21,158 nucleotides of DNA, taken from positions 1 to 21,158 of the forward strand of contig JABFRW010000215.1 in assembly GCA_013140805.1 (NCBI GenBank), given 5' to 3'. Every line of letters starts with the position of its first letter. Position 1 is the first letter of the stretch. Below, piece after piece: positions 629 to 18,428 of this stretch. Under the pieces are notes generated by a model. The model was not told the DNA's origin and did no database searches. It was given only the letters and a program-made list of their open reading frames with translations. The translations under genes and the position numbers were made by a program. This DNA is from Candidatus Eiseniibacteriota bacterium (GTDB lineage Bacteria > Eisenbacteria > RBG-16-71-46).

Positions 629-929
629 TCCGATCTTGGATTCGGACGACGCGCGGCTGCTCGAGCGACTCGCCGAACGCGTGGTGGAATTGCGACTCGA
701 GACGCCGGCCCTGCTGGCGATCGAGAGCGCGCGACCTCTCGCGTTCGTGGCGTCTCAGGCGCTGGTGTTCTTCCAGCCGTTCGTCGCGATGTGGATGCCG
801 GTCGGGGCCTACGAACGCTTCGCGTTGCTCATGCAGGACCGCCGCAATGTGGACGCGCTGGCCGAGCACATCGAGTCGCGAGCCGCCGCTCGACCGCGCA
901 CCGCCGCCCGGCCGGGCCCCAAGCCATGA
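618..929 (+). CDS. Hypothetical protein (103 aa)
   Basis: ATG 618 lies in frame 3. The stop TGA 927-929 overlaps the ATG 926 of the next gene (ATGA coupling). The reading frame is the same as the real C-terminal half of track ORF 273..929. Confidence 0.45.
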   Translation: MASDPILDSDDARLLERLAERVVELRLETPALLAIESARPLAFVASQALVFFQPFVAMWMPVGAYERFALLMQDRRNVDALAEHIESRAAARPRTAARPGPKP

Positions 930-2734
930 GCGCGCCGCCGCTGGTTCGATCGATCCTCGCCACCGACTGCGGCTCGACCACCACCAAGGCGATCCTCATC
1001 GAGCGCGGCGAGTCCGGCTACCGCCTGGTATCGCGTGGTGAAGCACCGACGACCGTGGAAGCGCCGTTCGAGGACGTCACACGAGGGGTCCTGAACGCGG
1101 TCAGGGAGATCGAGGAACTGCGCGGGCGCCGCATGCTGGATGGCGATCGCATCCTCACACCGCAAAACGGCGACGAGGGCGTGGATCTGTACGTTTCGAC
1201 CTCGAGCGCGGGCGGCGGGCTGCAGATGATGGTGTCGGGGCTGGTGCTTCAGATGACGGGGGAGAGCGCCCAGCGAGCCGCGCTCGGCGCGGGAGCGATC
1301 GTCATGGACGTGATCGCGCTCAATGACGGCCGGCGACCTCACGAAAAGATCCAGAGACTTCGTCAGCTGCGCCCCGACATGATCCTGTTGTCGGGCGGCA
1401 CCGACGGCGGCGATACGCTGCGCGTGGTCGAGATGGCCGAGATCCTCGCGGCCGCCGATCCCAAGGCGCGGCTCGGCGCCGGCTACGAACTACCCGTGAT
1501 CTTTGCCGGCAACCAGGCCGCGGTGCCGATGGTGCGCGAGTGCCTCGAGAAGCGCACCGCTCTGCTGGTCGTGCCGAACCTGCGACCGACACTCGAACGC
1601 GAGAACCTGCGGCCGGCCCGCGATGCGATCCACGAGTTGTTCATGGAACACGTGATGGCGCACGCGCCGGGTTACAAAAAGCTCATGACCTGGTCGCGGG
1701 TCCCGATCATGCCCACGCCCGGGGCGGTCGGGCTCATCATCGAGAAGATCGCGAAGCGCGATTCGATCGCCGTGGTGGGAGTCGACATCGGCGGTGCAAC
1801 GACCGACGTGTTCTCCGTGTTCCAGGAAGTCTTCAACCGCACGGTCTCGGCGAATCTCGGCATGAGCTATTCGGTTTCGAATGTCCTGGCCGAAGCGGGG
1901 ATCGAGAACATCCTGCGGTGGGTGCCGTTCGACGTCGACGAAGTCGAGCTGCGCAATCGGATCAAGAACAAGATGATCCGGCCCACGACGATTCCGCACA
2001 CGCTCGAGGATCTGGTGATCGAGCAGGCGATTTCGCGCGAGGCGCTGCGGCTCGCCTTCGAGCAGCACAAGCAGCTCGCAACCGGCCTCAAGGGCATCCA
2101 GACCGAGCGCACGATCTCCGACATCGTGAATCAGAGCGAGAGCGGCGCATCCCTGGTCGACCTGCTGCAGCTCGGTCTGCTCGTCGGCTCGGGCGGCGTG
2201 CTGTCGCATGCACCGAGACGCGTCCAGTCGGCCCTCATGATGGTCGATGCGTTCCTCCCCGAAGGCGTCACCGAGCTGGCGGTCGACAGCATCTTCATGG
2301 CGCCGCAGCTCGGCGTGCTTTCGACGGTCCATGAGGAAGCCGCGACGCAGGTGTTCGAAGCCGACTGTCTGATCCGGCTGGGCTCGGTCGTGGCGCCGAT
2401 CGGCGCGGCGCGTGAAGGCCAGCCGTGCGTGACCGTGCAACTGACAGGCCCGGGAGTCGACGCCTCGCCGCGTCGCGTCGCGTTCGGCGAGCTGGTGGTG
2501 CTGCCATTGCCGGCCGACGGCAAGCTGCGGCTCACCGCCACACCCGAGAAGGGCTTCGACCTGGGTGCCGGCAAAGGCCGCCCGATCGAGACCGAGATCC
2601 GCGGCGGCGTGGTCGGCCTGATCGTGGATGCGCGTGGCCGCCGACCCTTTCAGCTTCCGTCCACGACCGCCGAGCGCATACGACGCCTGCGGGCGTGGAA
2701 TGCGGCCCTGTCCGTCTACCCCCGGGAGGTCTGA
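926..2734 (+). CDS. GlmL/MutL-family ASKHA (actin-like) ATPase, 602 aa, with a ~130-aa C-terminal extension
   Basis: ATG 926 (MSAPPLVRSILATDCGSTTTKAILIE) carries a phosphate-1 motif DxGSTxTK at the N-terminus. A second ASKHA motif, VGVDIGGATTDVFSV, lies mid-protein. This is the pattern of glutamate-mutase component L, EutA and PduG-like two-domain ATPases. The ORF track extends the frame upstream to 791, but ATG 926 with ATGA coupling is the likely start. Confidence 0.55.
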   Translation: MSAPPLVRSILATDCGSTTTKAILIERGESGYRLVSRGEAPTTVEAPFEDVTRGVLNAVREIEELRGRRMLDGDRILTPQNGDEGVDLYVSTSSAGGGLQMMVSGLVLQMTGESAQRAALGAGAIVMDVIALNDGRRPHEKIQRLRQLRPDMILLSGGTDGGDTLRVVEMAEILAAADPKARLGAGYELPVIFAGNQAAVPMVRECLEKRTALLVVPNLRPTLERENLRPARDAIHELFMEHVMAHAPGYKKLMTWSRVPIMPTPGAVGLIIEKIAKRDSIAVVGVDIGGATTDVFSVFQEVFNRTVSANLGMSYSVSNVLAEAGIENILRWVPFDVDEVELRNRIKNKMIRPTTIPHTLEDLVIEQAISREALRLAFEQHKQLATGLKGIQTERTISDIVNQSESGASLVDLLQLGLLVGSGGVLSHAPRRVQSALMMVDAFLPEGVTELAVDSIFMAPQLGVLSTVHEEAATQVFEADCLIRLGSVVAPIGAAREGQPCVTVQLTGPGVDASPRRVAFGELVVLPLPADGKLRLTATPEKGFDLGAGKGRPIETEIRGGVVGLIVDARGRRPFQLPSTTAERIRRLRAWNAALSVYPREV

Positions 2735-3855
2735 TGGCGCACTCGTACACGCCGGGGCTGCGCGTGACCTCGCACGCGGAGTTGATCCGCGAACGCCGGC
2801 TCCCGCTCAAGGGGGACGTGCTGGTGCAGGCGGGCGATGCAGTCGAGGCTCGGACGGTGGTCGCGCGGACCGACCTGCCTGGCAACGTGCAGACGGTCAA
2901 TCTCGCCGCCAAGCTGTCGCTCGATCCGGCGAAGGTGCCGTCCGCGCTGGCACGACCGCTCGGGAGCGCGGTGCGAAAGGGCGAAATCATCGCCGAGGCG
3001 AAGGGGCTGTTCGGACTCATGAGCCAGAAGGTCGAGGCGCCGTCCGACGGCACGCTCGAGAGCGTCTCATCGATCACCGGTCAGCTCATTTTTCGCGAAC
3101 CCCCACTTCCGATCGAAGTCGAAGCCTACGTGCGTGGCGTGGTCGACGAAGTGTTGCCAGGCGAAGGCGTGAGAATTCGAACCGAGGGAGCCTTCCTGCA
3201 GGGCATTTTCGGCGTAGGGGGCGAGACGCACGGACCGGTCGCGATGGTCTCGAGCGGCCCCGAAGCGGAGCTCACCGCCGATCTGCTGCGACCCGAGCAT
3301 CGCGATCACGTGGTGGTCGGTGGGTGCTACGTTTCGCACGCGACGCTGATGCGCGCGCGGGATCTCAGAGTGGCGGCGGTGGTGGTCGGTGGCTTCGACG
3401 ATCGCGACCTGCGCCAATTGCTGGGCCGCGACCTCGGAGTCGCGATCACGGGTTCTGAGACGCTCGGATTCACGCTCATCCTCACCGAGGGCTTCGGTCG
3501 CATCGCGATGGCGGCGCGCAGCTGGAATCTGCTGGCCGCCCATGTCGGCGAGCTGGCGTCGGTGAGCGGCGCGACGCAGATTCGCGCGGGCGTGATGCGC
3601 CCCGAAATCATCATTCCCCGCATCGGGGAGATGAGTGCTCCGGCGGCTGAAATGGGGAGCGGATTCGAGCTCGGCGCCCACATCCGGGTGATTCGGGCGC
3701 CCTACTTCGGACGCATCGGTGCCGTGAGCGCCCTGCCCCCCGAGCTTCACGATCTCGACAGCGGAACGCGGGTCCGCGTCATGCACGTGCGCTTCACCGA
3801 CGACGGCAGCGAGGCGCTGGTGCCGCGCGCGAACGTCGAGCTGATCGAGCGATGA
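2735..3855 (+). CDS. Hypothetical protein (373 aa), translationally coupled partner of the ASKHA ATPase
   Basis: ATG 2735 immediately follows stop TGA 2732-2734. SD GGGAGG sits 6 nt upstream. Motifs GDVLVQAGDAV and KGEIIAEAKG suggest a biotinyl/lipoyl-like barrel-sandwich fold at the N-terminus. No family was recognised. Confidence 0.55.
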
Positions 3856-3879
3856 AATGCCGCGTGGGACCCATTTCCG

Positions 3880-3914
3880 TTGACACTGCGGGAAACGTGT
3901 TGCTAGCGTCCGTC
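3880..3914 (+). promoter_or_regulatory. Candidate sigma70-like promoter (TTGACA -18- TAGCGT) upstream of the membrane-protein operon
   Basis: TTGACA at 3880-3885 and a TAnnnT hexamer 18 nt downstream lie in the 113-bp gap before ATG 3969. The -10 element is weak. Confidence 0.2.
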
Positions 3915-3968
3915 CTCAATCGGTTTCTCGGCACGGCTCGACCGGGGTCGTGCGGAGGGTGCAGGACC

Positions 3969-5183
3969 ATGGAGGTTCGTTTGCGACCTTTCCGCCTACC
4001 CGACCCGCTGCGTGTCGTTGCCCTGCTGGCGTGGGTCGTGTGTGCAGTCGCATTCGCCGGGTCCGCCGGAGCACAGGACTCCACCGGGGTCGCGCAAATC
4101 GCCCCGGCAGCGCCGTCCGGCCTCACGGTCTCCGACGTCGCCAACGACGCGGGCCGCCAGCTCGAGCTCAACTGGAAGCGTTCTCCCGACGATCGCACGG
4201 GCTCGACGCTCGTCACCTTCTATCAGATCGAACGTGCCGATCAGCCCGGCGGTCCCTGGGAGGTCGTCGACTCGGTGGCGATGGCGACCGAGTCCTACGT
4301 CGACCAGTCGGTGCGACGCGAGCAGTCCTATTTCTATCGCGTGTCCTCGATCGGGCCGGGCGGGCTGACCCCGGCGCTCAGCGTCACCGGACCGGCGGTC
4401 GCAACCTCGCAGTTCTTCAATACGGCGCGGTGGAGCGTGCTCGTCTACACGCTGGGCTTCTTCGCATTCGTGATGTTCTTCATCGCTCGAGCGCAGAGCG
4501 GACAGAAGACCTTCCTGCGTCGCATTCCGGGCGTGGATGCGATCGAGGAGGCGATCGGTCGCGCGACCGAAATGGGCCGGCCGGTGCTCTACATCCCGGG
4601 CATCCTCGACATCGACGACATCCAGACCGTGGCGGGACTCGTGATTCTCGAGAGCGTCGCCAAGCTGACGGCGCGCTACCAGACCGCGATCCGGGTGCCG
4701 GTGACGTACCCGATCCCGTTCGCGATCGCGCAGGACATGGTGAAGAACGGTTACCTGAGCGCGGGACGCCCCGACGCTCACGATCCCGATGCGGTGCAGT
4801 TCGTTTCGCCGGAACAGTTCGCCTACGTCGCGAACGTGGGCGGCATCATGCTGCGCGATCGGCCGGGCGCCCACATCTTCATGGGTGCGTTTTACGCCGA
4901 ATCGCTCCTGCTGGCGGAGACCGGCTTCCAGACCGGTGCGATCCAGGTCGCGGGCACCGCGAACGTGCATCAGCTGCCGTTCTTCGTCGTGGCCTGCGAC
5001 TACACGCTGATTGGCGAGGAATTGTTCGCTGCCGGCGCCTACCTGAGCGGAGATCCCAAGCTGGTCGGAAGCCTCAAGGCCATCGACCTCATGAAGATCA
5101 CGCTTCTTCTCACCATCCTCGTCGGCTGTGCGCTCGAAACTCTGGGCCACCACGGCTTCACGAATTGGATGGCAACCCAGTAG
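3969..5183 (+). CDS. Secreted/membrane protein with N-terminal signal peptide, FN3-like domain and C-terminal membrane-associated domain (404 aa)
   Basis: ATG 3969 with SD GGAGGG ~10 nt upstream. The signal peptide is LRVVALLAWVVCAVAFAGSAGAQD. The FN3-like segment (PSGLTV...LNWKRS...TFYQIER...WEVV...SYFYRVSSIGPGGLTPALS) ends with the Y-x-R-V motif. Hydrophobic TM segments follow (WSVLVYTLGFFAFVMFFIA and a C-terminal LMKITLLLTILVGCAL). Confidence 0.55.
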   Translation: MEVRLRPFRLPDPLRVVALLAWVVCAVAFAGSAGAQDSTGVAQIAPAAPSGLTVSDVANDAGRQLELNWKRSPDDRTGSTLVTFYQIERADQPGGPWEVVDSVAMATESYVDQSVRREQSYFYRVSSIGPGGLTPALSVTGPAVATSQFFNTARWSVLVYTLGFFAFVMFFIARAQSGQKTFLRRIPGVDAIEEAIGRATEMGRPVLYIPGILDIDDIQTVAGLVILESVAKLTARYQTAIRVPVTYPIPFAIAQDMVKNGYLSAGRPDAHDPDAVQFVSPEQFAYVANVGGIMLRDRPGAHIFMGAFYAESLLLAETGFQTGAIQVAGTANVHQLPFFVVACDYTLIGEELFAAGAYLSGDPKLVGSLKAIDLMKITLLLTILVGCALETLGHHGFTNWMATQ

Positions 5184-5191
5184 GAGCCCGA

Positions 5192-5854
5192 GTGAAGCGC
5201 GAGATTCCTCTGCTGCTGACGGGTGCGCTGGGATTGCTCATGATCCTGTCGTTCTTCGTACCCCATCAGTGGATCAGCGTGCCGGCAGATTTCATGCAGG
5301 CGAGCGCGATCGTGCTGGTGGCGTTCGGCTACGTGCTGGGAGGTGCGAACGTCCTGCGCGTGAACTTCAGCGCGATCATCAAGCAGAAGTCGGGCTGGCC
5401 CTACAACCTGGTGCTGGTGCTCGGACTGATCGCGACGCTTGCGATCGGTGCGGTCGACGGGTGCGCGAATCGGGGCGGATTCCTGAACGAGGGCACCACC
5501 TCGAAGTGGATCTACGACCAGCTCTACTCGCCGATGGCCTCCACGATGTTCGCGCTGCTCGCGTTCTACATCGCCTCGGCCGCGTTCCGGGCGTTTCGCA
5601 TCCGGACGTTCGAGGCCGGCCTGCTGGCGGTCGCGGCGCTGATCGTGATGCTCGGCCGCGTGCCGCTCACCAACGCACTGACGACGTGGGCCCCGGAGTG
5701 GATGCGGCTCCAAGCATGGCAGGAGTGGATCATGGATGTGCCGCAGAATGCCGCGAAGCGCGCGATCCTGATCGGTGCCGCACTCGGGGTGATGGCGACC
5801 GGGCTTCGCGTGATCCTCGGCATCGAACGAACCTACCTCGGCGCGGAGGAGTGA
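5192..5854 (+). CDS. Hypothetical polytopic membrane protein (220 aa)
   Basis: GTG 5192 follows SD AGGAG. There are multiple hydrophobic helices. The gene is in an operon with its neighbours, with a 4-bp gap to the next ATG. Confidence 0.5.
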   Translation: MKREIPLLLTGALGLLMILSFFVPHQWISVPADFMQASAIVLVAFGYVLGGANVLRVNFSAIIKQKSGWPYNLVLVLGLIATLAIGAVDGCANRGGFLNEGTTSKWIYDQLYSPMASTMFALLAFYIASAAFRAFRIRTFEAGLLAVAALIVMLGRVPLTNALTTWAPEWMRLQAWQEWIMDVPQNAAKRAILIGAALGVMATGLRVILGIERTYLGAEE

Positions 5855-5858
5855 GCCG

Positions 5859-6695
5859 ATGACCCTGCTCGACCGCCTCGCCCACATCGATCGCCGCTGG
5901 ATCTTCCTCGCCATGGGCATCCTGGTGCTGATCCCGCTGCTGTTCCCGCTCGCACTGCCGATCTTCGCCGGCAAACCGGTGCGCGATTTCAATGCCGCGA
6001 TGGAAACGATTCCAGCCGGCTCGACGGTGCTGATGCCGTGCGACTACGACCCCGGCGCGATTCCCGAGCTGGTTCCCATGACGAAAACGGCGCTACGCCA
6101 GCTGTGGGACAAGAACTGCAAGGTGGTGATTCCGGTGCTGTGGCCCGGCGGGCCTGGGCTCGTGGACCGCGTCGTTCGCGAAGTCGCGGCGGAGCCGCGC
6201 TACGCGAGCAAGCGTTATGGCGTCGACTGGGTGAACCTGGGCTACAAGGCGGGCAATGAGGCGGTGATGGTGCTGATGGGCCAGGGAGTCGCAAATGCGT
6301 TCCCGACCGACTTCCGGGGCACTCCGACTCGCGGCATGCCGATCATGGCCAAGGTTCGTGACTACTCGAGCTTCCCGATGCTGGTGAACATCTCGGCCGG
6401 CTATCCCGGAACCAAGGAGTGGGTGCAGCAGGTTCAGGCGCGCTTCCACATCCCGATGGTCGCCGGAGTCACCGCGGTGAGCGCTCCCGAGTTCTATCCG
6501 TACCTGCAATCCAAGCAGCTGCTCGGATTGCTCGGCGGCATGGCGGGCGCCGCGGAATACGAGAAGATCCGCAACGAGAAGGGTACGGCGACCAGCGGAA
6601 TGGACGCGCAGTCGCTCGCTCACCTGTTCGTGGCGCTGTGCATCGTGCTCGGCAACGTGGTCATGCGCCGGCGCGTCGGAGGGAGCGCCTCGTGA
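5859..6695 (+). CDS. Hypothetical membrane-anchored protein (278 aa)
   Basis: ATG 5859 has SD GGAGGAG 7 nt upstream. There is an N-terminal TM segment (WIFLAMGILVLIPLLFPLALPIF), then a soluble domain, then a C-terminal hydrophobic segment. Confidence 0.55.
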   Translation: MTLLDRLAHIDRRWIFLAMGILVLIPLLFPLALPIFAGKPVRDFNAAMETIPAGSTVLMPCDYDPGAIPELVPMTKTALRQLWDKNCKVVIPVLWPGGPGLVDRVVREVAAEPRYASKRYGVDWVNLGYKAGNEAVMVLMGQGVANAFPTDFRGTPTRGMPIMAKVRDYSSFPMLVNISAGYPGTKEWVQQVQARFHIPMVAGVTAVSAPEFYPYLQSKQLLGLLGGMAGAAEYEKIRNEKGTATSGMDAQSLAHLFVALCIVLGNVVMRRRVGGSAS

Positions 6696-7381
6696 GCCCG
6701 CACTGGTCGACCGATCCCGGCGTGTGGATTGCCGCCGCACTCACGATGTTCATCTTCAGCTTCCTCTACAAGGACAACCCGTTCTACAAGTTTGCCGAGC
6801 ACCTGTTCGTCGGAGTGTCGGCCGGTTACTGGATCATCCTCAACTTCTGGACCGTCATCGTGCCGAACCTGTGGACGCCGCTCGTGAACGGATTCGCGGG
6901 CCGGGGCACGGTGGCCGCGAACGTCGGACCACTCAACGTGTCCCAGGGCGACTACCGGGTGTTGTGGGTGATTCCTATGATTCTCGGCGTGATGCTGTTC
7001 GTGCGATTGCTGCCGAAGGGCGGGTGGATTTCGCGTTGGCCGCTCGCGGTGATCCTCGGGGTGTACGCCGGCATCAAGACCACCGGCTTCGCGCAGGGCG
7101 ACTTCGTCGCACAGGTGCAGGCGAGTCTTCAGCCGCTGTGGACCGGGCAGTTCGGCAGCAGCCTCAACGCCGTGATCTTCACGGTCGGCCTCGTGACCTC
7201 GTTGTTCTTCTTCTACTTCAGCCTCGAGCACAAGGGCGGGCTCGGCATCGCCTCCAAGATCGGCATGGCGTTCCTGATGGTCGGCTTCGGCGCGGGCTAC
7301 GGCTACACGGTGATGTCGCGCGTCTCGCTGCTGATCGGGCGCTTTCAGTTCCTGCTCGGCGATTGGATCGGACTCCGCTGA
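6692..7381 (+). CDS. Hypothetical polytopic membrane protein (229 aa)
   Basis: GTG 6692 forms a GTGA overlap with the upstream stop (6693-6695). SD GGAGGGAG lies 7 nt upstream. Several TM helices are present (IAAALTMFIFSFLY, VLWVIPMILGVMLFV, IFTVGLVTSLFFFYF). Confidence 0.5.
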   Translation: MSPHWSTDPGVWIAAALTMFIFSFLYKDNPFYKFAEHLFVGVSAGYWIILNFWTVIVPNLWTPLVNGFAGRGTVAANVGPLNVSQGDYRVLWVIPMILGVMLFVRLLPKGGWISRWPLAVILGVYAGIKTTGFAQGDFVAQVQASLQPLWTGQFGSSLNAVIFTVGLVTSLFFFYFSLEHKGGLGIASKIGMAFLMVGFGAGYGYTVMSRVSLLIGRFQFLLGDWIGLR

Positions 7382-7443: not shown

Positions 7444-8235
7444 ATGTTGCGCGATCGCGCGTTGCTCGATGAAGTGGAGAAGTCCGGAGCGATCGTCATG
7501 CGGATCTACCGCTTTGCACCCGCCGGCATCACGCTGGGCGCCCACCAGGACCCGCAACGCGAGCTCGACCTCGAACGCTGTGAGCGAGACGGAGTGCGGT
7601 GGGCGGTGCGTCCGACCGGCGGCCGCGCGATCTTTCACGACGACGAGTGGACCTATGCGTTCGCGGCGCCGATCGATCATCCCGAGTGGGGCGGAGGCTT
7701 GCTCGAAGCGTACGATCGAGTCAGCCGGGTGATCGTGAGTTCGCTGCTGCGCCTCGGAGTACCTGCGAGTCTGGCGCGTTCGGGAGGCGCGCGCGCCGGG
7801 ACGGCATCGCGCGCGGAGGTTGCCGCTCCGTGCTTCACTTCGACGGCCCGCCACGAGATCGTCGTGGCGAATCGCAAGCTGGTCGGCAGCGCCCAGCGCC
7901 GCACCGCGACCGTCTACCTGCAGCAGGGCAGTGTCCTGCTCGGCGAGGGTCATTTGCGCCTGGTCGACTACCTCAATCTCGAACTCGAGGCACGCGAGCG
8001 AGAGCGCCAGGCGCTCACCGGCGCGGCCGTCAGTGCGCGGCGCTGGCTCGGCGAACGTGCACCCCTCGAACGTTGGGCCGAAGCGCTGCGAGCGAGCTTC
8101 TCGGTCCCCGGCGAGCCGGCCTGGAGCGGTGGATCGCGCTCCCGATTGGCCCTCGAAAAACCGCCTTCCTATACTGTGTCAAACGTTGTCCCCGAAATGG
8201 CCCGCCTCCGCACTCCGGGAGAGACCCACTCATGA
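7444..8235 (+). CDS. Lipoate-protein ligase / octanoyltransferase family protein (BPL_LplA_LipB catalytic domain)
   Basis: Motifs ITLGAHQ, RPTGGRAIFHDDEWTYAF and NRKLVGSAQRR (the catalytic Lys region) are typical of the LplA/LipB family. The start may instead be TTG 7408, because RCEAPGDAPEQMLRDRALL aligns with the family N-terminus WRLxxSGxxxxAxNMAxDEAL. Confidence 0.55.
   Translation: MLRDRALLDEVEKSGAIVMRIYRFAPAGITLGAHQDPQRELDLERCERDGVRWAVRPTGGRAIFHDDEWTYAFAAPIDHPEWGGGLLEAYDRVSRVIVSSLLRLGVPASLARSGGARAGTASRAEVAAPCFTSTARHEIVVANRKLVGSAQRRTATVYLQQGSVLLGEGHLRLVDYLNLELEARERERQALTGAAVSARRWLGERAPLERWAEALRASFSVPGEPAWSGGSRSRLALEKPPSYTVSNVVPEMARLRTPGETHS
8146..8175 (+). promoter_or_regulatory. Candidate sigma70 promoter (TTGGCC -18- TATACT) for the ABC transporter operon, lying inside the 3' end of the upstream gene
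   Basis: There is a local AT-rich patch with a near-consensus -10 hexamer TATACT at 8170-8175 and a TTGxxx -35 at 8146-8151. It is ~55 bp upstream of the SBP ATG 8232. Confidence 0.25.
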
Positions 8236-10061
8236 TCATCGCGCGCATTCGAACCGTTTCGCTGCTCGCCCTCGGCCTGCTGTTGCTCGCGCTGGCGACC
8301 GGCTGCGGCGGCAGCACCGGAGTCGCCGCTTCGAGCTACAAGGATCCGTTCCCGCTCCCTCGCGACACCATGCAGTTCGTGGCGAAGGAAGTCGGCCGCC
8401 ACGGCGGGCGCTTCGTGATCGGACAGACCTCGGCGCCCAAGTCTTTCAACGCGATCATGGCGAACGAGACCTCGTCCACCGACCTGACGCAGTTGTTGTT
8501 CGTGGGGCTCAGCGAGTACGACAACGGCCGGCAGGTCGAGATCCCGATGGTGGCCAAGAGCTGGGACCTGAGCGAGGACGGCCGTCGCTGGACCTATCAC
8601 ATGCGGCGCGGCGCGGCGTTCTCGGACGGGCACCCGATCACCTCGGCGGACGTGCTGTTCTCGTTCGAGGTGACCTATGACGAGACGCTCCATCCCTCGA
8701 TGCAGGAACTCATCAAGGTGAATGGAAAGCCGTTTCAGATCAGCGCACCCGATTCGTACACCGTCGTGTTCGACATTGCCGAGCCCTACGTGCTCATGAA
8801 TGCGGTCGTGGGTTCGGTCCGCATCATGCCGAAGCACATCCTGGAGCCCGCGTTTCGCGGCGGCAATTTCGCAGCTGCCTACAACTCGAACACAGCTCCC
8901 GAGAGCCTCGTGACGAGTGGGGCCTGGAAGCTCAAGAGCTTCGTGCCGGGCGAGAAGACGGTGCTGACGCGCAATCCGTACTGGTTCGGCGTCGACTCGA
9001 AAGGGCAGCGCCTCCCGTACCTCGACGAACTGACATTCGTGATCGTGCCGGATCAGAACACCGCATTCCTCAAGTTCCAGGCCGGCGATCTCGACGCGCT
9101 CGACAACGTCAAGCCCGAGGACTACAAGACCTACGAAGACATGCAGAAGTCGCATGACTTCACGCTCCACGAGATCGGACCGAGCCTCAACACGAATTTC
9201 TTCTGGTTCAATCTCAACCGGGTGCACGAGCCGAAGCCGGGCCGCAAGCTGGGCTCGACTTACCTCGACGCGACCAAGTACGCCTGGTTCAGCGACGTGC
9301 GCTTCCGGCGCGCGGTGTCGATGGGGATCGATCGCGAAGCGATGATCCGCGGAGTGTTCTTCGGAGACGCGGTCAAGAACTGGGCGACGTACACCGCCGG
9401 CAACAAGCTGTGGTACGACCCGACCATCACGGGCGCCGACTACGATCCCGAAGGCGCGAAGCGGCTGCTCGCGGAGGCCGGCTTCAAGGATCGCGACGGC
9501 GACGGCGTGCTCGAGGACGCGAAGGGCCACACCGTTTCATTCACGATCAAGACGAACGGCGACAACGTGACGCGCGTGCAGATGGCGAACTTCATCAAGG
9601 ACGACCTGGCGAAGATCGGCATCAAGTGCATTCCGACCCCGGTCGACTTCAACACCTTGATCACGAATCTGCGCCAGGACTTCCAGTACGAAGCCTTGCT
9701 TCTGGGGCTGTCTTCCGCGGTACCGCCGGACCCGGGCATGGGGCAGAACGTGTTCCGCTCGAGCGGTCTCACGCACTACTGGAACATCAAGCAGCCCCGG
9801 CCCGAGACGCCCCAGGAGGTCGAGATCGATCGCCTGATCGGCGAGAATGTCGGGACCTTCGACATGGCGATCCGCAAGGCCACGCTCCATCAGATCTTCG
9901 AGATCTGGAATCGCGAGGTCTACACGGTGTGGCTTCCGACTGTGATCATGAAGCTCCCGGTGAGCAATCGCTTCGGTAACACCGAGCCGGTGCCGATTCC
10001 GCATCGCATCCTGTGGAACATCGACCGGGTGTTCGTGAAGTCGCCCGGTCGACCGGCGTGA
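8232..10061 (+). CDS. ABC transporter substrate-binding lipoprotein, family 5 (peptide/oligopeptide/nickel type), 609 aa
   Basis: ATG 8232 forms an ATGA overlap with the upstream stop. The lipoprotein signal is LLALGLLLLALATGC. Length and motifs fit SBP_bac_5. It is followed by cognate permease and ATPase genes. Confidence 0.8.
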   Translation: MIIARIRTVSLLALGLLLLALATGCGGSTGVAASSYKDPFPLPRDTMQFVAKEVGRHGGRFVIGQTSAPKSFNAIMANETSSTDLTQLLFVGLSEYDNGRQVEIPMVAKSWDLSEDGRRWTYHMRRGAAFSDGHPITSADVLFSFEVTYDETLHPSMQELIKVNGKPFQISAPDSYTVVFDIAEPYVLMNAVVGSVRIMPKHILEPAFRGGNFAAAYNSNTAPESLVTSGAWKLKSFVPGEKTVLTRNPYWFGVDSKGQRLPYLDELTFVIVPDQNTAFLKFQAGDLDALDNVKPEDYKTYEDMQKSHDFTLHEIGPSLNTNFFWFNLNRVHEPKPGRKLGSTYLDATKYAWFSDVRFRRAVSMGIDREAMIRGVFFGDAVKNWATYTAGNKLWYDPTITGADYDPEGAKRLLAEAGFKDRDGDGVLEDAKGHTVSFTIKTNGDNVTRVQMANFIKDDLAKIGIKCIPTPVDFNTLITNLRQDFQYEALLLGLSSAVPPDPGMGQNVFRSSGLTHYWNIKQPRPETPQEVEIDRLIGENVGTFDMAIRKATLHQIFEIWNREVYTVWLPTVIMKLPVSNRFGNTEPVPIPHRILWNIDRVFVKSPGRPA

Positions 10062-10083
10062 TCGGCGCATGAACGTGCGGCCC

Positions 10084-10130
10084 CGTGGCGCGTCCACTCC
10101 CGATCGGGAGCGGCGCGCTCGCCGCGCCAC
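10084..10130. other. Nested inverted repeats (CGTGGCGCG...CGCGCCACG enclosing GCGGCG-cgct-CGCCGC) in the SBP-permease spacer; possible intra-operon attenuator or stabilising hairpin
   Basis: The 9-bp arms at 10084-10092 and 10122-10130 are exact reverse complements. An inner 6-bp stem with a 4-nt loop sits between them. No T-run follows. Confidence 0.3.
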
Positions 10131-10137
10131 GTGACCC

Positions 10138-11106
10138 ATGCGGACCTTCATCCTCCGGCGCATTCTGCAGACCATCCCGCTTCTGATCGGGATCTCGGCG
10201 CTCACGTTCCTGTTGCTCCAACTCGCGCCGGGCGACTTCCTCAACACCATGGCCGAGAACCCCGGCATCTCAGCCGAGAGCATCGAGGCGATGCGCCGGC
10301 GTTTCGGACTCGATCAGCCCTGGTACCTCCAGTACGGCATCTATCTGAAGAACGTCTTTCTGCATTTCGACTTCGGCGAGTCGTTCTCGCGTCATCAGCC
10401 GGTCTTCACAGTGCTGAAGGAGGGCCTCCTCAACACCCTGCTGCTTGCGACCTCGGCGGCGGTGGTGACGTGGGGCCTCGCGATTCCGCTCGGCGTCTGG
10501 GCGGCGGTTCGTCAGTACGGCGCAGTCGACAAGACGCTCTCGCTGATGGCATTCGTCTGGCTATCGATCCCCGAGGTGTTGTCCGGGCTCTTGCTGCTGT
10601 TTCTCGCCGCCAAAACCGGGCTGTTTCCAGTCGGCGGGATGCGTTCGCTGGACTGGGAGACCATGGATCTGGGCGCGCGTCTGTTCGATCTCGCCCACCA
10701 CCTCGCACTGCCGGCGCTGGTGACCGGACTGATCCCTCTCGCCAGCCGCATGCGACAGATGCGCGGCAATCTGCTCGACGTGCTGCGCCTGGACTACATC
10801 ACGACCGCGCGTGCCAAGGGGCTCTCGGAACGCACCGTGATCTTCAAGCATGCCGCGCGCAACGCGCTCAACCCGCTCATCACGCTGTTCGGTTTCACGC
10901 TCGGAGCGCTGGTGTCGGGAGCGTTCGTGTCCGAGATCATCTTCGCGTGGCCGGGCCTCGGACGTATCACGCTCGAAGCGATCCAGACCCAGGATCAGTA
11001 TCTGGTGCTCGGATCGGTCCTGATGGCATCGGTGGTGCTCGTGGTCGGGAATCTGATCGCCGACCTGCTGCTCGCGGTCGCGGATCCGAGGATCAGCTAT
11101 GACTGA
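10138..11106 (+). CDS. ABC transporter permease (DppB/OppB-like, BPD_transp_1)
   Basis: The N-terminus MRTFILRRILQTIPLLIGISALTFLLLQLAPGDF is the classic DppB/OppB start. There are six or more hydrophobic helices. Confidence 0.85.
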   Translation: MRTFILRRILQTIPLLIGISALTFLLLQLAPGDFLNTMAENPGISAESIEAMRRRFGLDQPWYLQYGIYLKNVFLHFDFGESFSRHQPVFTVLKEGLLNTLLLATSAAVVTWGLAIPLGVWAAVRQYGAVDKTLSLMAFVWLSIPEVLSGLLLLFLAAKTGLFPVGGMRSLDWETMDLGARLFDLAHHLALPALVTGLIPLASRMRQMRGNLLDVLRLDYITTARAKGLSERTVIFKHAARNALNPLITLFGFTLGALVSGAFVSEIIFAWPGLGRITLEAIQTQDQYLVLGSVLMASVVLVVGNLIADLLLAVADPRISYD

Positions 11107-12261
11107 TCCACGTACGTCGACGCCGGCGGCCGCCAGCGCAGCGGCCGACCCGTCCGCGCTCGAGATCCTTGCGAAGCCGCCCGAAAGTCCGGCGCGCATT
11201 TTCTGGCAGCAGTTCCGCAAAAGCCCGGTCGCGGTGACGGGCGGCGCCATTCTGCTCGCGCTGTACGGCCTCGCCCTGTTCGCGCCGTTCGTCTCGCCCT
11301 ACTCGCCGGAAGAGATGGATCGGAATCGCTTCTACCACGCACCTCAGGCTCTGCACTTTCGCGACGCCTCCGGCCGGTTCTCGGCGTGGCCGCACGCGTT
11401 CCCGACCCGCATCGCCGATCCGCGCGCGTTTCGGTATGAAGAAGATCCGGCCGGCGCGACGCCGCTGCGGCTGTTCGTGAAGGGCGCGCGTTACCACTGG
11501 CTGGGCGTGATTCCGATGGATCGGCATCTGTTCGGAGTCGATGCGCCGGTGCGGTTCTACCCGTTCGGCACCGATCCGAATGGACGAGATGTGCTGTCGC
11601 GGTTGCTCTACGGCGCCCAGATCTCGCTCACGGTCGGACTGATCGGCATTGCGATCTCGTTCACGCTCGGCCTGCTGCTGGGCGGTATCTCGGGGTACTT
11701 CGGGGGCTGGGTGGACTCGATCATCATGCGATTCACGGAATTGCTGCTCAGCATCCCCGGCCTCTACCTGCTGATCGCGCTGCGTGCCATCTTCCCCGTC
11801 GACCTTCCGAGTCAGCAGGTGTACCTGGGCATCGTGGTGATTCTCGCGCTGATCGGCTGGGCCGGCCTCGCGCGCATCATCCGCGGCATGGTGCTCTCGA
11901 TCCGACGCGCGGAGTACGTGGCCGCGGCCGAGGCGCTCGGCATGAGCCGACTGCGGATCATCGCGCGACACATTCTGCCGAACACCATGTCGTTCGTGAT
12001 CGTCGCGGCGACCATCTCGATTCCCGGCTACATCCTTGGTGAAGTCGTGCTGTCGTTTCTGGGGCTCGGCGTGCAGGAGCCGGCCGCCTCGTGGGGCAAC
12101 ATGCTGGCGCAGGCTCGCAGTCTTCGCGTGCTCACGTCGTTCCCGTGGATGCTGCTGTTCCCCGGCAGCGCGATCTTCGTGACGGTGCTGGCATTCAACT
12201 TCCTCGGTGACGGACTGCGCGACGCGCTCGACCCGCGCCGCGTGCTCGGAGGCAAGACCAC

Positions 12262-12265
<4 letters not shown>
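11099..12265 (+). CDS. ABC transporter permease (DppC/OppC-like) with an extended N-terminal region, 388 aa
   Basis: ATG 11099 overlaps the upstream stop by 8 nt. Core motifs [17 protein letters not shown] and the EAA-loop region ([21 protein letters not shown]) are present. Confidence 0.85.
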
Positions 12266-14311
<2,046 letters not shown>

Positions 14312-14840
14312 CACCCCGGCCGCTTCGAGCGATCGCGAGCGACTTTCCCCATCCATGCCGAATGCTCGGGCGAATTGACCCCCTGCGCGAGACCGGGAAC
14401 TACAATCGCCCGACGCTGGATCTACTCCACTGGCTGAGATCACGAAGGCAATGATCTGCAAAGCAACGAATTGCGCGGACGGGGTCGAGCTGAAGTGCTG
14501 GCTTCGAGCAGCGTGGCACCTGGCTTGCGGTGTTAGTTCCTCGAACGCCGATCCGGCGGTTGCGGACCGGCAACGACATCGCAACACCAGGTTGTTCCCT
14601 GTTCGACTCGTGATTGGCCGGCTGTGGGCTGATCCCCCTATCGCGAGCGAAGGAGTCTTACGGACCGGTACACGGTCGATACGGGGAACTTTTTAGGGCT
14701 CCGCCAGCGGCACATGCCTCCCAGCTAGACACCCGAGGCCGCAGCGGAGCCCATGACTTTTCGTCCGGAGTTCGTCGAGGTGCGTGTTCGTTCCGCGCCT
14801 CCGATGTCCGCGGTCGCTCGAGACCTCCGGCTCTCGCGCG

Positions 14841-14869
14841 TTGATTCGCTCCGCAAGCCCTGTTAGCTT
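14841..14869 (+). promoter_or_regulatory. Candidate sigma70 promoter (TTGATT -17- TAGCTT) ~80 bp upstream of the BMC operon
   Basis: The hexamers at 14841-14846 and 14864-14869 have an exact 17-nt spacer. This is the only good match in the leader close to the first BMC-H start. Confidence 0.3.
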
Positions 14870-14949
14870 CGCAGCTTCCATGGGATCCGGTGCGGCTCGG
14901 CCGGGCCGCCTTTCGGGTCGCACCCTTGCGGAGAGCGAGCGAACCTCAC

Positions 14950-15231
14950 GTGCCACGCGAAGCCCTGGGACTCATCGAGACCCGTGGGCTGATCGCCGCC
15001 ATCGAGGCGGCGGACGCGATGTGCAAGACGGCGTCGGTCCGTCTGGTTCGCTACGAGAAGATCTCCGGAGCGCTCGTGACCGTCTGCATTCGGGGCCCGG
15101 TGGCTGACGTCGAATCCGCGGTGGAGGCCGGCGCGCGAGCGGCGGCGCGGTTGGGAGCGGTCGTCGCCCACCACGTCATTCCGGCACCCGATCCGCAACT
15201 CGAAGACCGACTCGCGGGACCCGCGCGCTGA
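14950..15231 (+). CDS. BMC-H shell protein (Pfam00936 single BMC domain), divergent paralog
   Basis: [58 protein letters not shown] is a canonical BMC-domain sequence. The start is chosen as GTG 14950 to give the usual ~93-aa size. In-frame ATG 14890 would add a 20-aa extension. Confidence 0.85.
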
Positions 15232-15265
15232 ACGGCGGCCCGATTCCACTGGCAGGGAGGGCGGC

Positions 15266-15565
15266 ATGCAGGAAGAGGCTCTGGGACTCATCGAGACCCG
15301 CGGGTTCGTGGCGATGGTCGAGGCGACCGACGCGATGGTGAAGGCGGCACGGGTTCAGCTGGTGCATTACGAAAAGATCGGCGGCGGCTACGTGACCGCC
15401 GTGGTACGCGGTGACGTCGCCGCAGTTCGCGCCGCGACCGAAGCAGGTGCCGCCGCCGCCGCCCGCGTGGGTGAGGTGGTTTCGGTGCACGTGATTCCGC
15501 GCCCGCACGGCCAGCTCGAGGACGCGCTGCCGATCGGCCGCGCCGCCGCTCCGGCCAAGAAGTAG
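15266..15565 (+). CDS. BMC-H shell protein (canonical hexamer paralog)
   Basis: The sequence [81 protein letters not shown] fits the PduA/EutM/CcmK pattern. SD GGGAGGG lies 5 nt upstream. Confidence 0.9.
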
Positions 15566-15571
15566 CGTTCG

Positions 15572-15877
15572 ATGATTCTCGCGCAGGTGCTGGGGACCGT
15601 CGTCTCCACGCGCAAGGACCGCGGCCTGGTGGGGCTCAAGCTGATGCTGTGTCGCGAGCTCGACGCCACGCTGAAGCCGCTCGGCAACTACGTCGTGGCG
15701 GTGGACGCGGTCGGTGCCGGCACCGATGAAGTCGTGCTGGTCGCGAGTGGTTCGTCGGCGCGCCTCACGGAAGCCTCAAAGGACAAGCCGGTCGACGCCG
15801 TGATCACGGGGATCGTGGACGTGGTCGAGGTCGGGGGTCGCGACGTCTACTCGAAGCGTGAAGGTGTGACGGCGTGA
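15572..15877 (+). CDS. BMC-P vertex (pentamer) protein, EutN/CcmL/PduN family
   Basis: MILAQVLGTVVSTRKD...VAVDAVGAGTDEVVLVASGSSAR...DAVITGIVD matches the Pfam03319 pattern. Confidence 0.85.
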   Translation: MILAQVLGTVVSTRKDRGLVGLKLMLCRELDATLKPLGNYVVAVDAVGAGTDEVVLVASGSSARLTEASKDKPVDAVITGIVDVVEVGGRDVYSKREGVTA

Positions 15878-17310
15878 GCCGCGAGACGCTCGGCACCGCG
15901 CTCGATGCCCGCCGCATCAGCGGGATCGTCGCCGAGGTGCTCGAAAAGCTCGATCGAGGCTCGGCGTCCGCCGGCGGGAGCGCACCGCTCGGAATTCATC
16001 CAGACCTCGACACGGCCGTCCGCGCCGCGCGCGATTCGTTCAAAGCCTTCGACGAGGTGCCGCTCTCGACCCGTCAGGCGGTGATCGACTCGATCCGCTC
16101 CACGCTCGCCACCCAGTATCGGACGCTCTCCGAGCTCGCGGTCGAGGAAACCGGGTTGGGGCGCGTCGACGACAAGATTCTCAAAAACCGCCTCGTCACC
16201 GAGAAGACGCCGGGCACCGAGGACCTCGCGCCGATCACCTGGACGGGTGACCACGGCCTGACGCTTGCCGAGCGGGCACCCTATGGCGTCATCGCGGTCA
16301 TCACGCCGGTCACCAATCCGAGTGAGACCGTGATCAACAACGGCATCTCGATGATCGCGGGCGGCAATACCGTGGTGCTGTGCCCACACCCGAACGCGCG
16401 CCGGGTCTCGAATCTGACCGTCGATCTCATGAATCGTGCGGCGCGCAAGGCCGGTGCTCCGCTGCCGCTGATCCACTCGGTCGACGAGCCGACACTCGAG
16501 GTCGCTCAGGCGTTGCTGCGCTACAAGGGTATCCGACTGAACGTGGTCACCGGCGGTCCCGCAGTGGTGCGCGAGGCGCTGGCCGCGAGCAAGAAGGCGA
16601 TCACCGCGGGGCCCGGCAATCCGCCCGCGGTGGTGGACGAGACCGCGGACCTCGAGAAGGCCGGACGCGATCTGGTGATGGGCGGCTCGCTCGACAACAA
16701 CATCATCTGCACCGACGAGAAGGAGATCGTGGTGGTTTCGGTCATCGCCGATCGTCTCAAGGAAGCGATGGCGCGCGCGGGTGCGGTGATCCTCGCGCCG
16801 CATCAGATCGAAACGCTGCGCCGGGTGGTGTTCGAGAAGGAGCAGGGGCCGCGAAAGTACGCGATCATCCAGCGTCGCTTCGTCGGCAAGAACATCGACG
16901 TGATCCTGCGCGAGGCCGGAATCCCGTGCGATCCGACCAAGCGCATGGCGGTGTGCGAGGTCGACGCCGATCACCCGTTCCTGTGGACCGAGATGATGAT
17001 GCCGATCATGCCGCTCACGCGGGTCCGAACCGCCGACGACGCGATCGATTTCGCGATCGAGGTGGAACAGGGCAATCGGCACACCGCTTCGATGCACTCG
17101 CGCAACATCGAAAAACTCTCGCGCATGGCACGCGAGTGCGACTGCTCGATCTTCGTCAAGAACGGTCCGAATGCCGCGGGACTGGGCTTCGGGGGCGAGG
17201 GACCGACCAGTTTCACGATCGCGAGCCCCAGCGGCGAGGGCATGACCACGGCGCGCAGCTTCACGCGCTTCCGTCGTTGCAGTCTGATCGACTCGTTCCG
17301 GATCGTGTGA
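15874..17310 (+). CDS. CoA-acylating aldehyde dehydrogenase (PduP/EutE-like) with N-terminal encapsulation-peptide-like extension
   Basis: GTG 15874 forms a GTGA overlap with the BMC-P stop. The Rossmann region is GVIAVITPVTNPSETVINNGISMIAGGNTVVLCPHP. The catalytic Cys context is NNIICTDEKE. The N-terminus contains the amphipathic helix RISGIVAEVLEKL followed by the G/S/A linker DRGSASAGGSAPLG. Confidence 0.85.
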   Translation: MSRETLGTALDARRISGIVAEVLEKLDRGSASAGGSAPLGIHPDLDTAVRAARDSFKAFDEVPLSTRQAVIDSIRSTLATQYRTLSELAVEETGLGRVDDKILKNRLVTEKTPGTEDLAPITWTGDHGLTLAERAPYGVIAVITPVTNPSETVINNGISMIAGGNTVVLCPHPNARRVSNLTVDLMNRAARKAGAPLPLIHSVDEPTLEVAQALLRYKGIRLNVVTGGPAVVREALAASKKAITAGPGNPPAVVDETADLEKAGRDLVMGGSLDNNIICTDEKEIVVVSVIADRLKEAMARAGAVILAPHQIETLRRVVFEKEQGPRKYAIIQRRFVGKNIDVILREAGIPCDPTKRMAVCEVDADHPFLWTEMMMPIMPLTRVRTADDAIDFAIEVEQGNRHTASMHSRNIEKLSRMARECDCSIFVKNGPNAAGLGFGGEGPTSFTIASPSGEGMTTARSFTRFRRCSLIDSFRIV

Positions 17311-17864
17311 TGAACGTCTCCATTGCAGCCATCGAAACCAGCTCCATCGCACAAGGTGCGGTGGTGGGCGACGCGATGGTCAAAACCGCCGAAGTCGAGC
17401 TGATCGAGGCCCGCACGCTCTCGCCCGGCAAGTTCTGGGTCCTGATCGGTGGGGGTGTGGCCGAAGTTCGCGCAGCGCACCGGCGCGGACTCGACGCGGC
17501 GGCCGAGACGCGACTCGACGATCTGCTCATTCCGCAGCTTCATCTGGATGTCATGCCGGCGCTCAAGGGACGTGTGACGGGCCCCGATCACGACGCGCTG
17601 GGCGTGATCGAAACCCTGACCGCAGCGGCCACGATCGTGGCCGCCGACCGAGCCAGCAAGACTGCCGGCATCCTGTTGCGCGAAATTCGGCTCGCGAACG
17701 GTCTCGGGGGCAAGGGCTTCGTGACGCTGTCGGGCGATGTCGCGAGCGTTCAGGCTGCGGTCGAGGCCGGCAAGTCGGAGGCGCAGCGTGGCGGGCTGCT
17801 GGTGCGCGCGGTCGTGATTCCGCGACTTCACGAGCAGATGAAGTCGCGGCTGTGGGTGCGGTGA
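17310..17864 (+). CDS. BMC-T shell protein (tandem BMC domains, PduT-like, 184 aa)
   Basis: ATG 17310 shares its A with the upstream TGA. There are two BMC-domain repeats (IAAIETSSIAQGAVVGDAMVKTAEVELIEA... and DALGVIETLTAAATIVAADRASKTAGILLREIR...). The protein contains no cysteine, so a PduT-type Fe-S site is not possible. Confidence 0.8.
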   Translation: MNVSIAAIETSSIAQGAVVGDAMVKTAEVELIEARTLSPGKFWVLIGGGVAEVRAAHRRGLDAAAETRLDDLLIPQLHLDVMPALKGRVTGPDHDALGVIETLTAAATIVAADRASKTAGILLREIRLANGLGGKGFVTLSGDVASVQAAVEAGKSEAQRGGLLVRAVVIPRLHEQMKSRLWVR

Positions 17865-17868
17865 CGCC

Positions 17869-18159
17869 ATGCACTTCGCGCGCGTGATCGGCACCGTCGT
17901 CTGCACCGAGAAGGTGCCTTCGTGGCGCGGCCAGCGACTCCTGATGTTGCAGCCGACGACGCCCGGCGGTGAAGACCTGGGCCGCCGCGTGGTGGCAATC
18001 GATCTGGTCTCGGCCGCGCCGGGTCAACAGGTGTTCTACGTGCGCGGCCGCGAAGCAGCGACCGCGCTTGCGAACCCCGACAATCCCGCCGACGCCGCGA
18101 TCGTGGGTATCGTCGATCAGGTCAGCGAGTCCGATGCTCCGGCGGGAGCTCGAGCCTGA
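17869..18159 (+). CDS. BMC-P vertex protein (second paralog)
   Basis: MHFARVIGTVVCTEK...VVAIDLVSAAPGQQVFYVRGREA...DAAIVGIVD matches the EutN/CcmL family pattern. Confidence 0.8.
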   Translation: MHFARVIGTVVCTEKVPSWRGQRLLMLQPTTPGGEDLGRRVVAIDLVSAAPGQQVFYVRGREAATALANPDNPADAAIVGIVDQVSESDAPAGARA

Positions 18160-18428
18160 TGCAGATCGCGCGCGTCATGGGGGAGGTGGTCGCGACCACT
18201 CACCACCGCGATCTGGATGGGCGCAAGCTGTTGCTCGTGCAGCCGGAGAATCCCGACGGCTCCGCGCGTGGGGGCCGCGTGATCGCGGTCGACGCGTCTC
18301 AGGCGGGGGTCGGGGATCGGGTGCTGGTCGCCGACGAGGGGAATGCCGCCGCCCAGGTGCTGGAACGTGGCCGCGGTGCGATCCGCACCGTGATCGTCGG
18401 GATCATCGACGATGTGGCCGGGGGATGA
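18159..18428 (+). CDS. BMC-P vertex protein (third paralog)
   Basis: MQIARVMGEVVATTHH...VIAVDASQAGVGDRVLVADEGNAA...RTVIVGIID matches the family pattern. The TGATG junction overlaps the previous stop. Confidence 0.8.
   Translation: MQIARVMGEVVATTHHRDLDGRKLLLVQPENPDGSARGGRVIAVDASQAGVGDRVLVADEGNAAAQVLERGRGAIRTVIVGIIDDVAGG

Follow-up and report, generated by a model that had tools for sequence, protein, structure and literature searches.

The window, by which we mean the whole 21,158-nt stretch analysed here, is a contig of Candidatus Eisenbacteria with a G+C content of 66% that is read almost wholly on the + strand and carries a seven-gene bacterial microcompartment (BMC) operon with an aldehyde dehydrogenase (AldDH) in its midst. 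Along the + strand, the genes run from an Opp-type ABC transporter across a gap of ~600 nt to BMC-H, BMC-H, BMC-P, AldDH, BMC-T, BMC-P and BMC-P, followed by HU and RNB. The open reading frames (ORFs) of 14890-18428 were scanned against Pfam and NCBIfam for the make-up of the locus; the shell set is complete, with hexamers, trimer and pentamers all encoded, and AldDH is the sole enzyme within the operon, the scans having returned no signature enzyme, phosphotransacylase, alcohol dehydrogenase or aldehyde-generating enzyme. The subject of this analysis is the N-terminus of AldDH, where residues 11-37 most probably form a canonical N-terminal encapsulation peptide (EP), that is, an amphipathic helix of ~17 residues and a short disordered linker on a type II, coenzyme A (CoA)-acylating AldDH, a reading to which we assign a probability of roughly 0.85.

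The enzyme (15874-17310, + strand; 478 aa) belongs to the CoA-acylating type II or EutE-PduP subfamily, as indicated by PF00171 and NF011927. It is 100% identical to the database protein 'aldehyde dehydrogenase EutE [Candidatus Eisenbacteria bacterium]', matches Pfam PF00171 at E=5.9e-34, and scores 607.8 bits against the NCBIfam EutE-subfamily profile NF011927 (cut-off 403), residues 12-478 aligning with profile positions 3-465 of 465. Its best structural matches are the BMC propionaldehyde dehydrogenases 5JFL, 5JFN and 4C3S over about 437-441 columns, which corresponds to the fold without the extension, and Foldseek gave TM values of 0.80-0.88 against 5JFL and 4C3S. The catalytic Cys279 is aligned to the acylated Cys of 5JFN and is invariant in 64 homologues, while the mean column identity in the homologue alignment is 80%. 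The product begins M/V-SRETLGTALDARRISGIVAEVLEKLDRGSASAGGSAPLGIHPDLDTAV..., and its C-terminus (...RRCSLIDSFRIV) ends with the fold, reaching the ends of both the profile and the structures; the extension is N-terminal only.

A first-pass annotation of this sequence had claimed an amphipathic helix at residues ~14-26 followed by a flexible, Gly/Ser/Ala-rich linker, and this architecture is confirmed by the hydrophobic moment, by AlphaFold2 and by conservation among homologues. The residues that it quoted are exact (14-26, RISGIVAEVLEKL; 27-40, DRGSASAGGSAPLG), and the interval 15874-16020 that it gave does span codons 1-49. The boundaries, in turn, need some adjustment. The helix is slightly longer than proposed, extending roughly over residues 11/12-28, and the truly variable part of the linker amounts to only ~10 residues (28-37), as P38-L39-G40 is conserved and represents the start of the fold. 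The Gly/Ala/Ser-rich composition likewise holds for the window protein, whereas the linkers are rich in Ala, Gly, Pro, Arg and Glu when the family is taken as a whole. On the + strand, the predicted EP helix (residues 12-28) thus occupies 15907-15957, as supported by the moment, AlphaFold2, conservation and the alignment with EutE and PduP; the core motif ISGIVAEVLEKL (residues 15-26) lies at 15916-15951, and the flexible linker RGSASAGGSA (residues 28-37), delimited by entropy, linker lengths and predicted local distance difference test (pLDDT) scores, at 15955-15984.

On the Eisenberg scale, the hydrophobic moment is 0.58 for residues 14-26 and 0.63 for residues 12-26, with a sharp peak at 100 degrees per residue, and shuffles of the same residues reach these values in ~3.5% and ~2% of cases, respectively. 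The hydrophobic face, composed of I15, I18, V19, V22, L23 and L26, falls within an arc of ~140 degrees, so that the absence of amphipathicity, which had been named as the outcome that would speak against a targeting helix, is not what we found. AlphaFold2, run with a 64-sequence alignment (predicted TM score 0.81), placed a helix at residues 12-28, then a coil at 29-40 in which pLDDT drops below 50 (residues 30-34); the fold sets in at residue 41 with its first strand and helix. The catalytic fold opens at P38-L-G-I-H, and P38-L39-G40-x-H42 is conserved.

Comparative conservation rather than the hydrophobic moment is the decisive evidence for the helix. Among the 120 closest database homologues, which share 74-80% identity, the pattern [IVL]xx[IV]VxxV[LIM]xx[LI] is present in 116 (consensus IESIVAEVLERL), mostly seven residues after the initiating Met, and the other four are start miscalls. 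V19 and V22 show no variation, and conservation at I18, L23 and L26 amounts to 97-98%. Mean column entropy is 0.73 bits over the motif, 2.6 bits over residues 28-37 and 0.54 bits over the fold, which puts conservation of the helix motif on a par with that of the catalytic core. At the nucleotide level, the codons of the hydrophobic residues do not change at positions 1-2 but drift at position 3 (V19, GTC/GTG 39:20; L23, CTC/CTG 28:31), and therefore the helix is translated and selected as protein, not as nucleic acid. The linker measures 10-19 aa in the close family, counted between the last motif residue and the conserved xG[VI]H, and consists of Ala, Gly or Pro to 58%. Distant relatives at 52-60% identity, labelled Gemmatimonadota, Deltaproteobacteria or Proteobacteria, retain the helix (IDAIVARVLERM, LESVVAQVLARI, LDSLVEKVLSRL), and their linkers reach about 60 Pro/Ala-rich residues. 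In the AldDH of locus L074 (about 9770-10000), the EP helix IDAIVRRVLERLA is followed by an exceptionally long Pro/Ala-rich linker of ~60+ residues, linker length being very free in this clade.

The first-pass annotation had also likened this N-terminus to those of PduP and EutE, and the alignment that it suggested supports more than a similarity of style: the helix is homologous to both, because NF011927 aligns from residue 12 and phmmer pairs EutE residue 5 with query residue 14. In EutE of the E. coli/Salmonella EUT1 locus, residues 5-17 (DIEQVVKAVLLKM) align with residues 14-26 of the window protein, with agreement at all six hydrophobic positions, and NF011927 is satisfied by either protein. 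The two enzymes nevertheless share only ~43% overall identity, and EutE uses acetaldehyde supplied by EutBC from the same operon, whereas no such partner is encoded here. PduP of the Salmonella/Citrobacter Pdu system belongs to the same family and carries, at the same terminus, a helix followed by a disordered linker (PMC4594438). Its residues L6, L9, I10, I13 and L14, which mutagenesis showed to be needed for encapsulation (PMC4594438), correspond to I15, I18, V19, V22 and L23 of the window protein, and its helix is both sufficient and necessary for targeting (PMC4594438). PduP differs in having a Pro/Gln-rich linker where the one here is Gly/Ala/Ser-rich, in being surrounded by a complete propanediol pathway where this locus lacks a signature enzyme, and in that its targeting was shown experimentally, whereas here it is deduced from sequence.

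A wide search of about 15 billion proteins, taking one representative per 50%-identity cluster, placed the extension in a broader context. An N-terminal extension of at least 18 aa is present in 45 of the 52 full-length cluster representatives, 38 of these 45 carry hxxhhxxhh at residues about 6-9, among them EutE (MNQQDIEQVVKAVLLKM...) and a PduP-like protein (MNTAELETLIRTILSEKL...), and the remaining seven of the 52 begin directly at the fold. By comparison, profiles and structures of the non-BMC relatives AdhE, SauS, SucD and type I ACDH align from query residues 45-81 only, implying a start at ~30-40, and non-BMC relatives and crystallised cores begin at about query residues 30-50. In the genomic survey, for which one genome per GTDB species was scanned, 80 loci encoding AldDH relatives were recovered, and all 80 have AldDH flanked by shell genes, arranged as (H,)H,P,AldDH,T,P,P as far as each contig reaches. 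BMC-free AldDHs with the same N-terminus, which would have argued for a role other than packaging, were thus not encountered among these 80 species-level loci.

Together, these observations fit the established description of an EP. According to the definition of Kinney 2012 and Aussignargues 2015, as taken from PMC4594438, such a peptide is an extension that is absent from non-BMC relatives and that combines an amphipathic helix with a poorly conserved linker, and all three features are found here. The absence of the extension from non-BMC relatives, the amphipathic helix, the variable linker and the setting in a shell operon support the reading of residues 11-37 as an EP. As such, the earlier view that the enzyme is cargo of the shell is upheld at the sequence level, and AldDH is probably a lumen cargo of an MIC7-type compartment; its physical encapsulation, binding partner and metabolic role we infer. 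By analogy with PduP, the hydrophobic face formed by I15, I18, V19, V22, L23 and L26 is expected to bundle with other EP helices, so that the enzyme condenses into a core, and/or to dock on the luminal side of the shell tiles. By either route, AldDH would end up inside a shell made from the six flanking shell genes, and within the lumen the tetrameric enzyme would remain free thanks to its disordered linker. Bundling of EPs and condensation have been described (PMC12339742), and docking of other EPs in the inter-tile groove of the shell has been reported (PMC11157265).

Several points weigh against this interpretation. By itself, the statistic for amphipathicity carries little weight (p about 0.02-0.04), with the segment ranking only 38th of the 465 13-mers of AldDH, and the AlphaFold2 helix has a pLDDT of only about 63. 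The E7-R11 salt bridge of PduP, reported to be important for EP self-assembly (PMC12339742), is not reproduced, as S16 and A20 occupy the equivalent positions here; in the family consensus, the former position is nonetheless Glu. Loading of foreign cargo by native EPs is often poor (PMC6787980), which means that efficient packaging need not follow from an EP-like sequence, and the EP of the Rhodopseudomonas palustris AldDH caused no aggregation (PMC5311937), so that the bundling half of the proposed mechanism may not apply.

Other explanations for the extension must be weighed against an EP. It might be an artefact of annotation, with translation starting at the in-frame GTG that encodes V22 (15937-15939) so that the full helix is never made. 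Apart from GTG 15874, the first start codon past the in-frame stop, this GTG is the one other in-frame start before the fold, and its use would truncate the conserved helix. Four public homologues (P0030, P0033, P0038 and P0073) are indeed annotated as starting within the helix (MAEVLERLE..., VLERL...). In 12 of 59 loci, however, codon 22 ends in C, A or T, and GTC, GTA and GTT are not start codons, so that the GTG at V22 is not a conserved start. I15, I18 and V19, all upstream of V22, moreover show conserved codon positions 1-2 with a variable position 3, and most homologues have an ATG seven codons ahead of the motif. GTG 15874 itself has a Shine-Dalgarno-like GAAGGTG (15860-15866) 7 nt upstream, and within the start region 15860-15877 it overlaps, in the sequence GTGA, the stop codon TGA of the preceding BMC-P gene, an arrangement typical of translational coupling. 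We therefore hold an internal start to be scarcely credible; the four helix-internal starts are evidently start-codon miscalls at an internal GTG or ATG that remove the targeting helix from the annotated protein. Fixing the correct AldDH start as GTG 15874, against the internal starts of several database entries, is of some value for annotation.

A genuine helix might still be an enzyme-intrinsic element serving oligomerisation, regulation or solubility, with its co-occurrence with shell genes reflecting shared ancestry only. The helix belongs to the NF011927 profile and is inherited across the whole type II clade, as would be expected from phylogenetic inertia. Yet the EP region is without density in the 5JFN crystal and lies outside the fold and the subunit interfaces in solved relatives (PMC5311937), a fixed structural role cannot be squared with a linker that is hypervariable and ranges from 10 to more than 60 aa, the PduP counterpart of the helix is what targets that enzyme (PMC4594438), and shell-free homologues lack the extension, all of which makes an intrinsic role very improbable. 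It is also conceivable, although we consider it very improbable, that the EP is genuine by origin while the compartment is a decaying or non-functional remnant, the peptide no longer marking active cargo. The missing signature enzyme, phosphotransacylase and alcohol dehydrogenase would agree with decay, as would the absence of the entire operon from some relatives that have the same genomic backbone. Against decay, none of the seven genes is disrupted, and their close spacing and order are kept across more than 60 species-level genomes, with 65-86% identity to RBG_16_71_46 (L026), AldDH keeps its catalytic Cys and its high column identity, and the hydrophobic positions of the EP are under purifying selection.

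The EP on this AldDH is a correct rediscovery of a feature that is already known. Type II AldDHs (IPR012408) bear N-terminal EPs (Sutter et al. 2021, Nat Commun 12:3809, PMC8217296), and an EP on the MIC7 AldDH of Ca. Eisenbacteria has already been stated in the same study (Supplementary Data 2). The catalogue describes MIC7 as having two BMC-H types, a BMC-P triplet and BMC-Ts without a pore cysteine (PMC8217296), and as known from Ca. Eisenbacteria or Latescibacteria (PMC8217296). The window locus matches this type in gene order, sole enzyme and phylum, and in being collinear with the MIC7 exemplar RBG_16_71_46, whose BMC-P of 101 aa and BMC-T of 182 aa match A2W00_06480 and A2W00_06470. Both loci come from the same phylum and share the order BMC-H, BMC-H, BMC-P, AldDH, BMC-Ts, BMC-P, BMC-P, with AldDH as the sole enzyme, as well as the BMC-P triplet and a PduT-like BMC-T without the pore cysteine. 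The AldDHs are 74% and the shell proteins 65-86% identical, the window BMC-T being 69% identical to the 182-aa 'Ts_drab' protein of the exemplar. In the catalogue, the MIC7 shell proteins belong to the HMM-defined clades H_marine, Ts_drab and green, grey and orange BMC-P, and a BMC-T devoid of cysteine, as in the window, would agree with Ts_drab. Differences are confined to detail: the window stems from another metagenome-assembled genome and contig, seven extra, non-conserved residues of its AldDH precede the point at which family members usually begin, and Ser, Gly and Lys stand at positions 16, 17 and 25 of the helix in place of the consensus Glu, Ser and Arg. There is no functional difference of kind between the window and the exemplar.

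The AldDH locus of the Haliangium ochraceum (HO) type is similar in that it has the order BMC-H, BMC-P, AldDH, BMC-T, a BMC-P triplet and an N-terminal EP (PMC8217296). It is dissimilar in that the catalogue sets the MIC7 AldDH nearest to SPU3, and the window lacks the aldolase and BMC-T(dp) of the HO type. An HO-like layout also occurs in the distant relatives L070-L082, whose AldDHs share 52-60% identity with that of the window. These loci have the order H,P,AldDH,T,P,P without HU or RNB neighbours and are labelled Eisenbacteria/Eiseniibacteriota, Gemmatimonadota, Deltaproteobacteria or Proteobacteria. In L072, a class II aldolase (PF00596; 12556-13260, +) directly follows the pentamer pair, placed as in HO type II loci.

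Given that the field treats N-terminal EPs on type II AldDHs as textbook knowledge, recognising one here is a matter of ordinary annotation, and the peptide gives no answer to the question of which aldehyde a one-enzyme compartment handles or where that aldehyde arises. For engineering, it extends the set of natural EP variants by one whose Gly/Ala/Ser linker is unusually short.

The shell proteins around AldDH all lie on the + strand. The more divergent hexamer, BMC-H 1 (14890-15231; Pfam PF00936, E=1.5e-28), has an ambiguous start: its ORF opens with GTG 14890, but the true start is probably TTG 14926 or GTG 14950, because the BMC domain begins only at ORF residue 25 and homologues measure 100-102 aa. 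BMC-H 2 (15266-15565) is a canonical EutM-like hexamer (PF00936, E=3.3e-30; NCBIfam EutM 139.8 bits, cut-off 133) and precedes the first vertex pentamer, BMC-P 1 (15572-15877; Pfam PF03319, E=5.4e-30). Downstream of AldDH, and with its ATG overlapping the AldDH stop, lies a PduT-like BMC-T of 184 aa (17310-17864) with two tandem PF00936 domains and similarity to eut_PduT (E=1.6e-31), the translation of which contains no cysteine. BMC-P 2 (17869-18159; PF03319, E=4.2e-25) and BMC-P 3 (18159-18428; PF03319, E=1.1e-23) complete the BMC-P triplet and bring the flanking shell genes to six, namely two BMC-H, one BMC-T and three BMC-P. A second EP-tagged cargo was not found when hxxhhxxhhxxh was searched for at protein termini in all window proteins and six frames; the other matches to this pattern in the window are transmembrane segments and internal BMC-P strands only. 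The operon is flanked on its 3' side by HU and an RNase II-family gene with an RNB domain, and on its 5' side by the Opp-type ABC transporter (about 8230-14311), for which Pfam and NCBIfam scans identified a solute-binding protein, two permeases and two ATPases.

Within the 600-nt gap between this transporter and the shell operon, the only conserved block is 14595-14688 (+), a stretch showing 75-94% identity across more than 60 loci. Its fold is an unbranched RNA rod comprising 28 base pairs, the internal loops of which do not vary in sequence (GGGCUGAUCCCCCUAUCGCGAGCGAAGGAGUC); 98% of cells are paired, and nine pairs show compensatory changes. None of 500 shuffles reached any of five measures, and slid-partner controls gave 37-55% pairing; the RNA is assigned to the + strand because of its conserved G-U pairs. 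A second hairpin (14696-14753) and a short T-run lie 3' of the rod, and a scan of 14200-15000 found neither a sigma-70 promoter nor an intrinsic terminator. Rfam returned no match for the whole window at gathering thresholds, nor for 14500-14900 even at E<=10, and identity with 6S or signal recognition particle RNA was rejected for lack of both a convincing resemblance by eye and an Rfam match. We thus regard the element as a candidate for a previously undescribed conserved structured RNA without an Rfam family. With a covariance model, it was recovered from nearly every Eisenbacteria-type locus. Two loci have tandem copies 5' of the shell operon, namely L040 (8111-8232 and 8636-8758) and L013 (4594-4717 and 4790-4911), the second copy in L013 being much weaker at 37.7 bits.

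When metagenome contigs were scanned for exact matches to this RNA, 120 stretches were recovered, most of which have the last ABC ATPase upstream of the RNA and BMC-H downstream. Ten, however, extend at least 750 nt downstream without BMC-H, and five of these (L103, L128, L131, L162 and L200) read ATPase, RNA, either nothing or a secreted protein of ~660 aa, HU and RNB, with the shell genes absent. The seven-gene BMC operon therefore behaves as a presence/absence cassette in a conserved backbone. Since these five loci keep the RNA without shell genes, the RNA is not compartment-specific, which weakens the idea of a BMC-specific riboswitch. The Opp-type ABC transporter was likewise rejected as the importer of the compartment substrate: the backbone of transporter, RNA, HU and RNB persists in shell-free relatives, and the linkage of the transporter is hence backbone synteny and provides no clue to the substrate. 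As a tentative and rather doubtful proposal, the RNA might be a ligand- or protein-responsive leader controlling whichever gene occupies the slot, be it the BMC operon, the ~660-aa secreted protein or the HU gene. If this were true and the RNA sensed a metabolite, it could help to trace the substrate of the MIC7 compartment.

Further upstream, the region 791-7381 (+), 5' of an LplA-like gene, encodes a series of poorly characterised proteins: a PF13941 'MutL' protein (glutamate-mutase-associated ATPase-like), a DUF6754 protein, and membrane and hypothetical proteins without a Pfam match. L001, too, has unannotated ORFs 5' of its LplA-like gene, which may or may not be the same genes.

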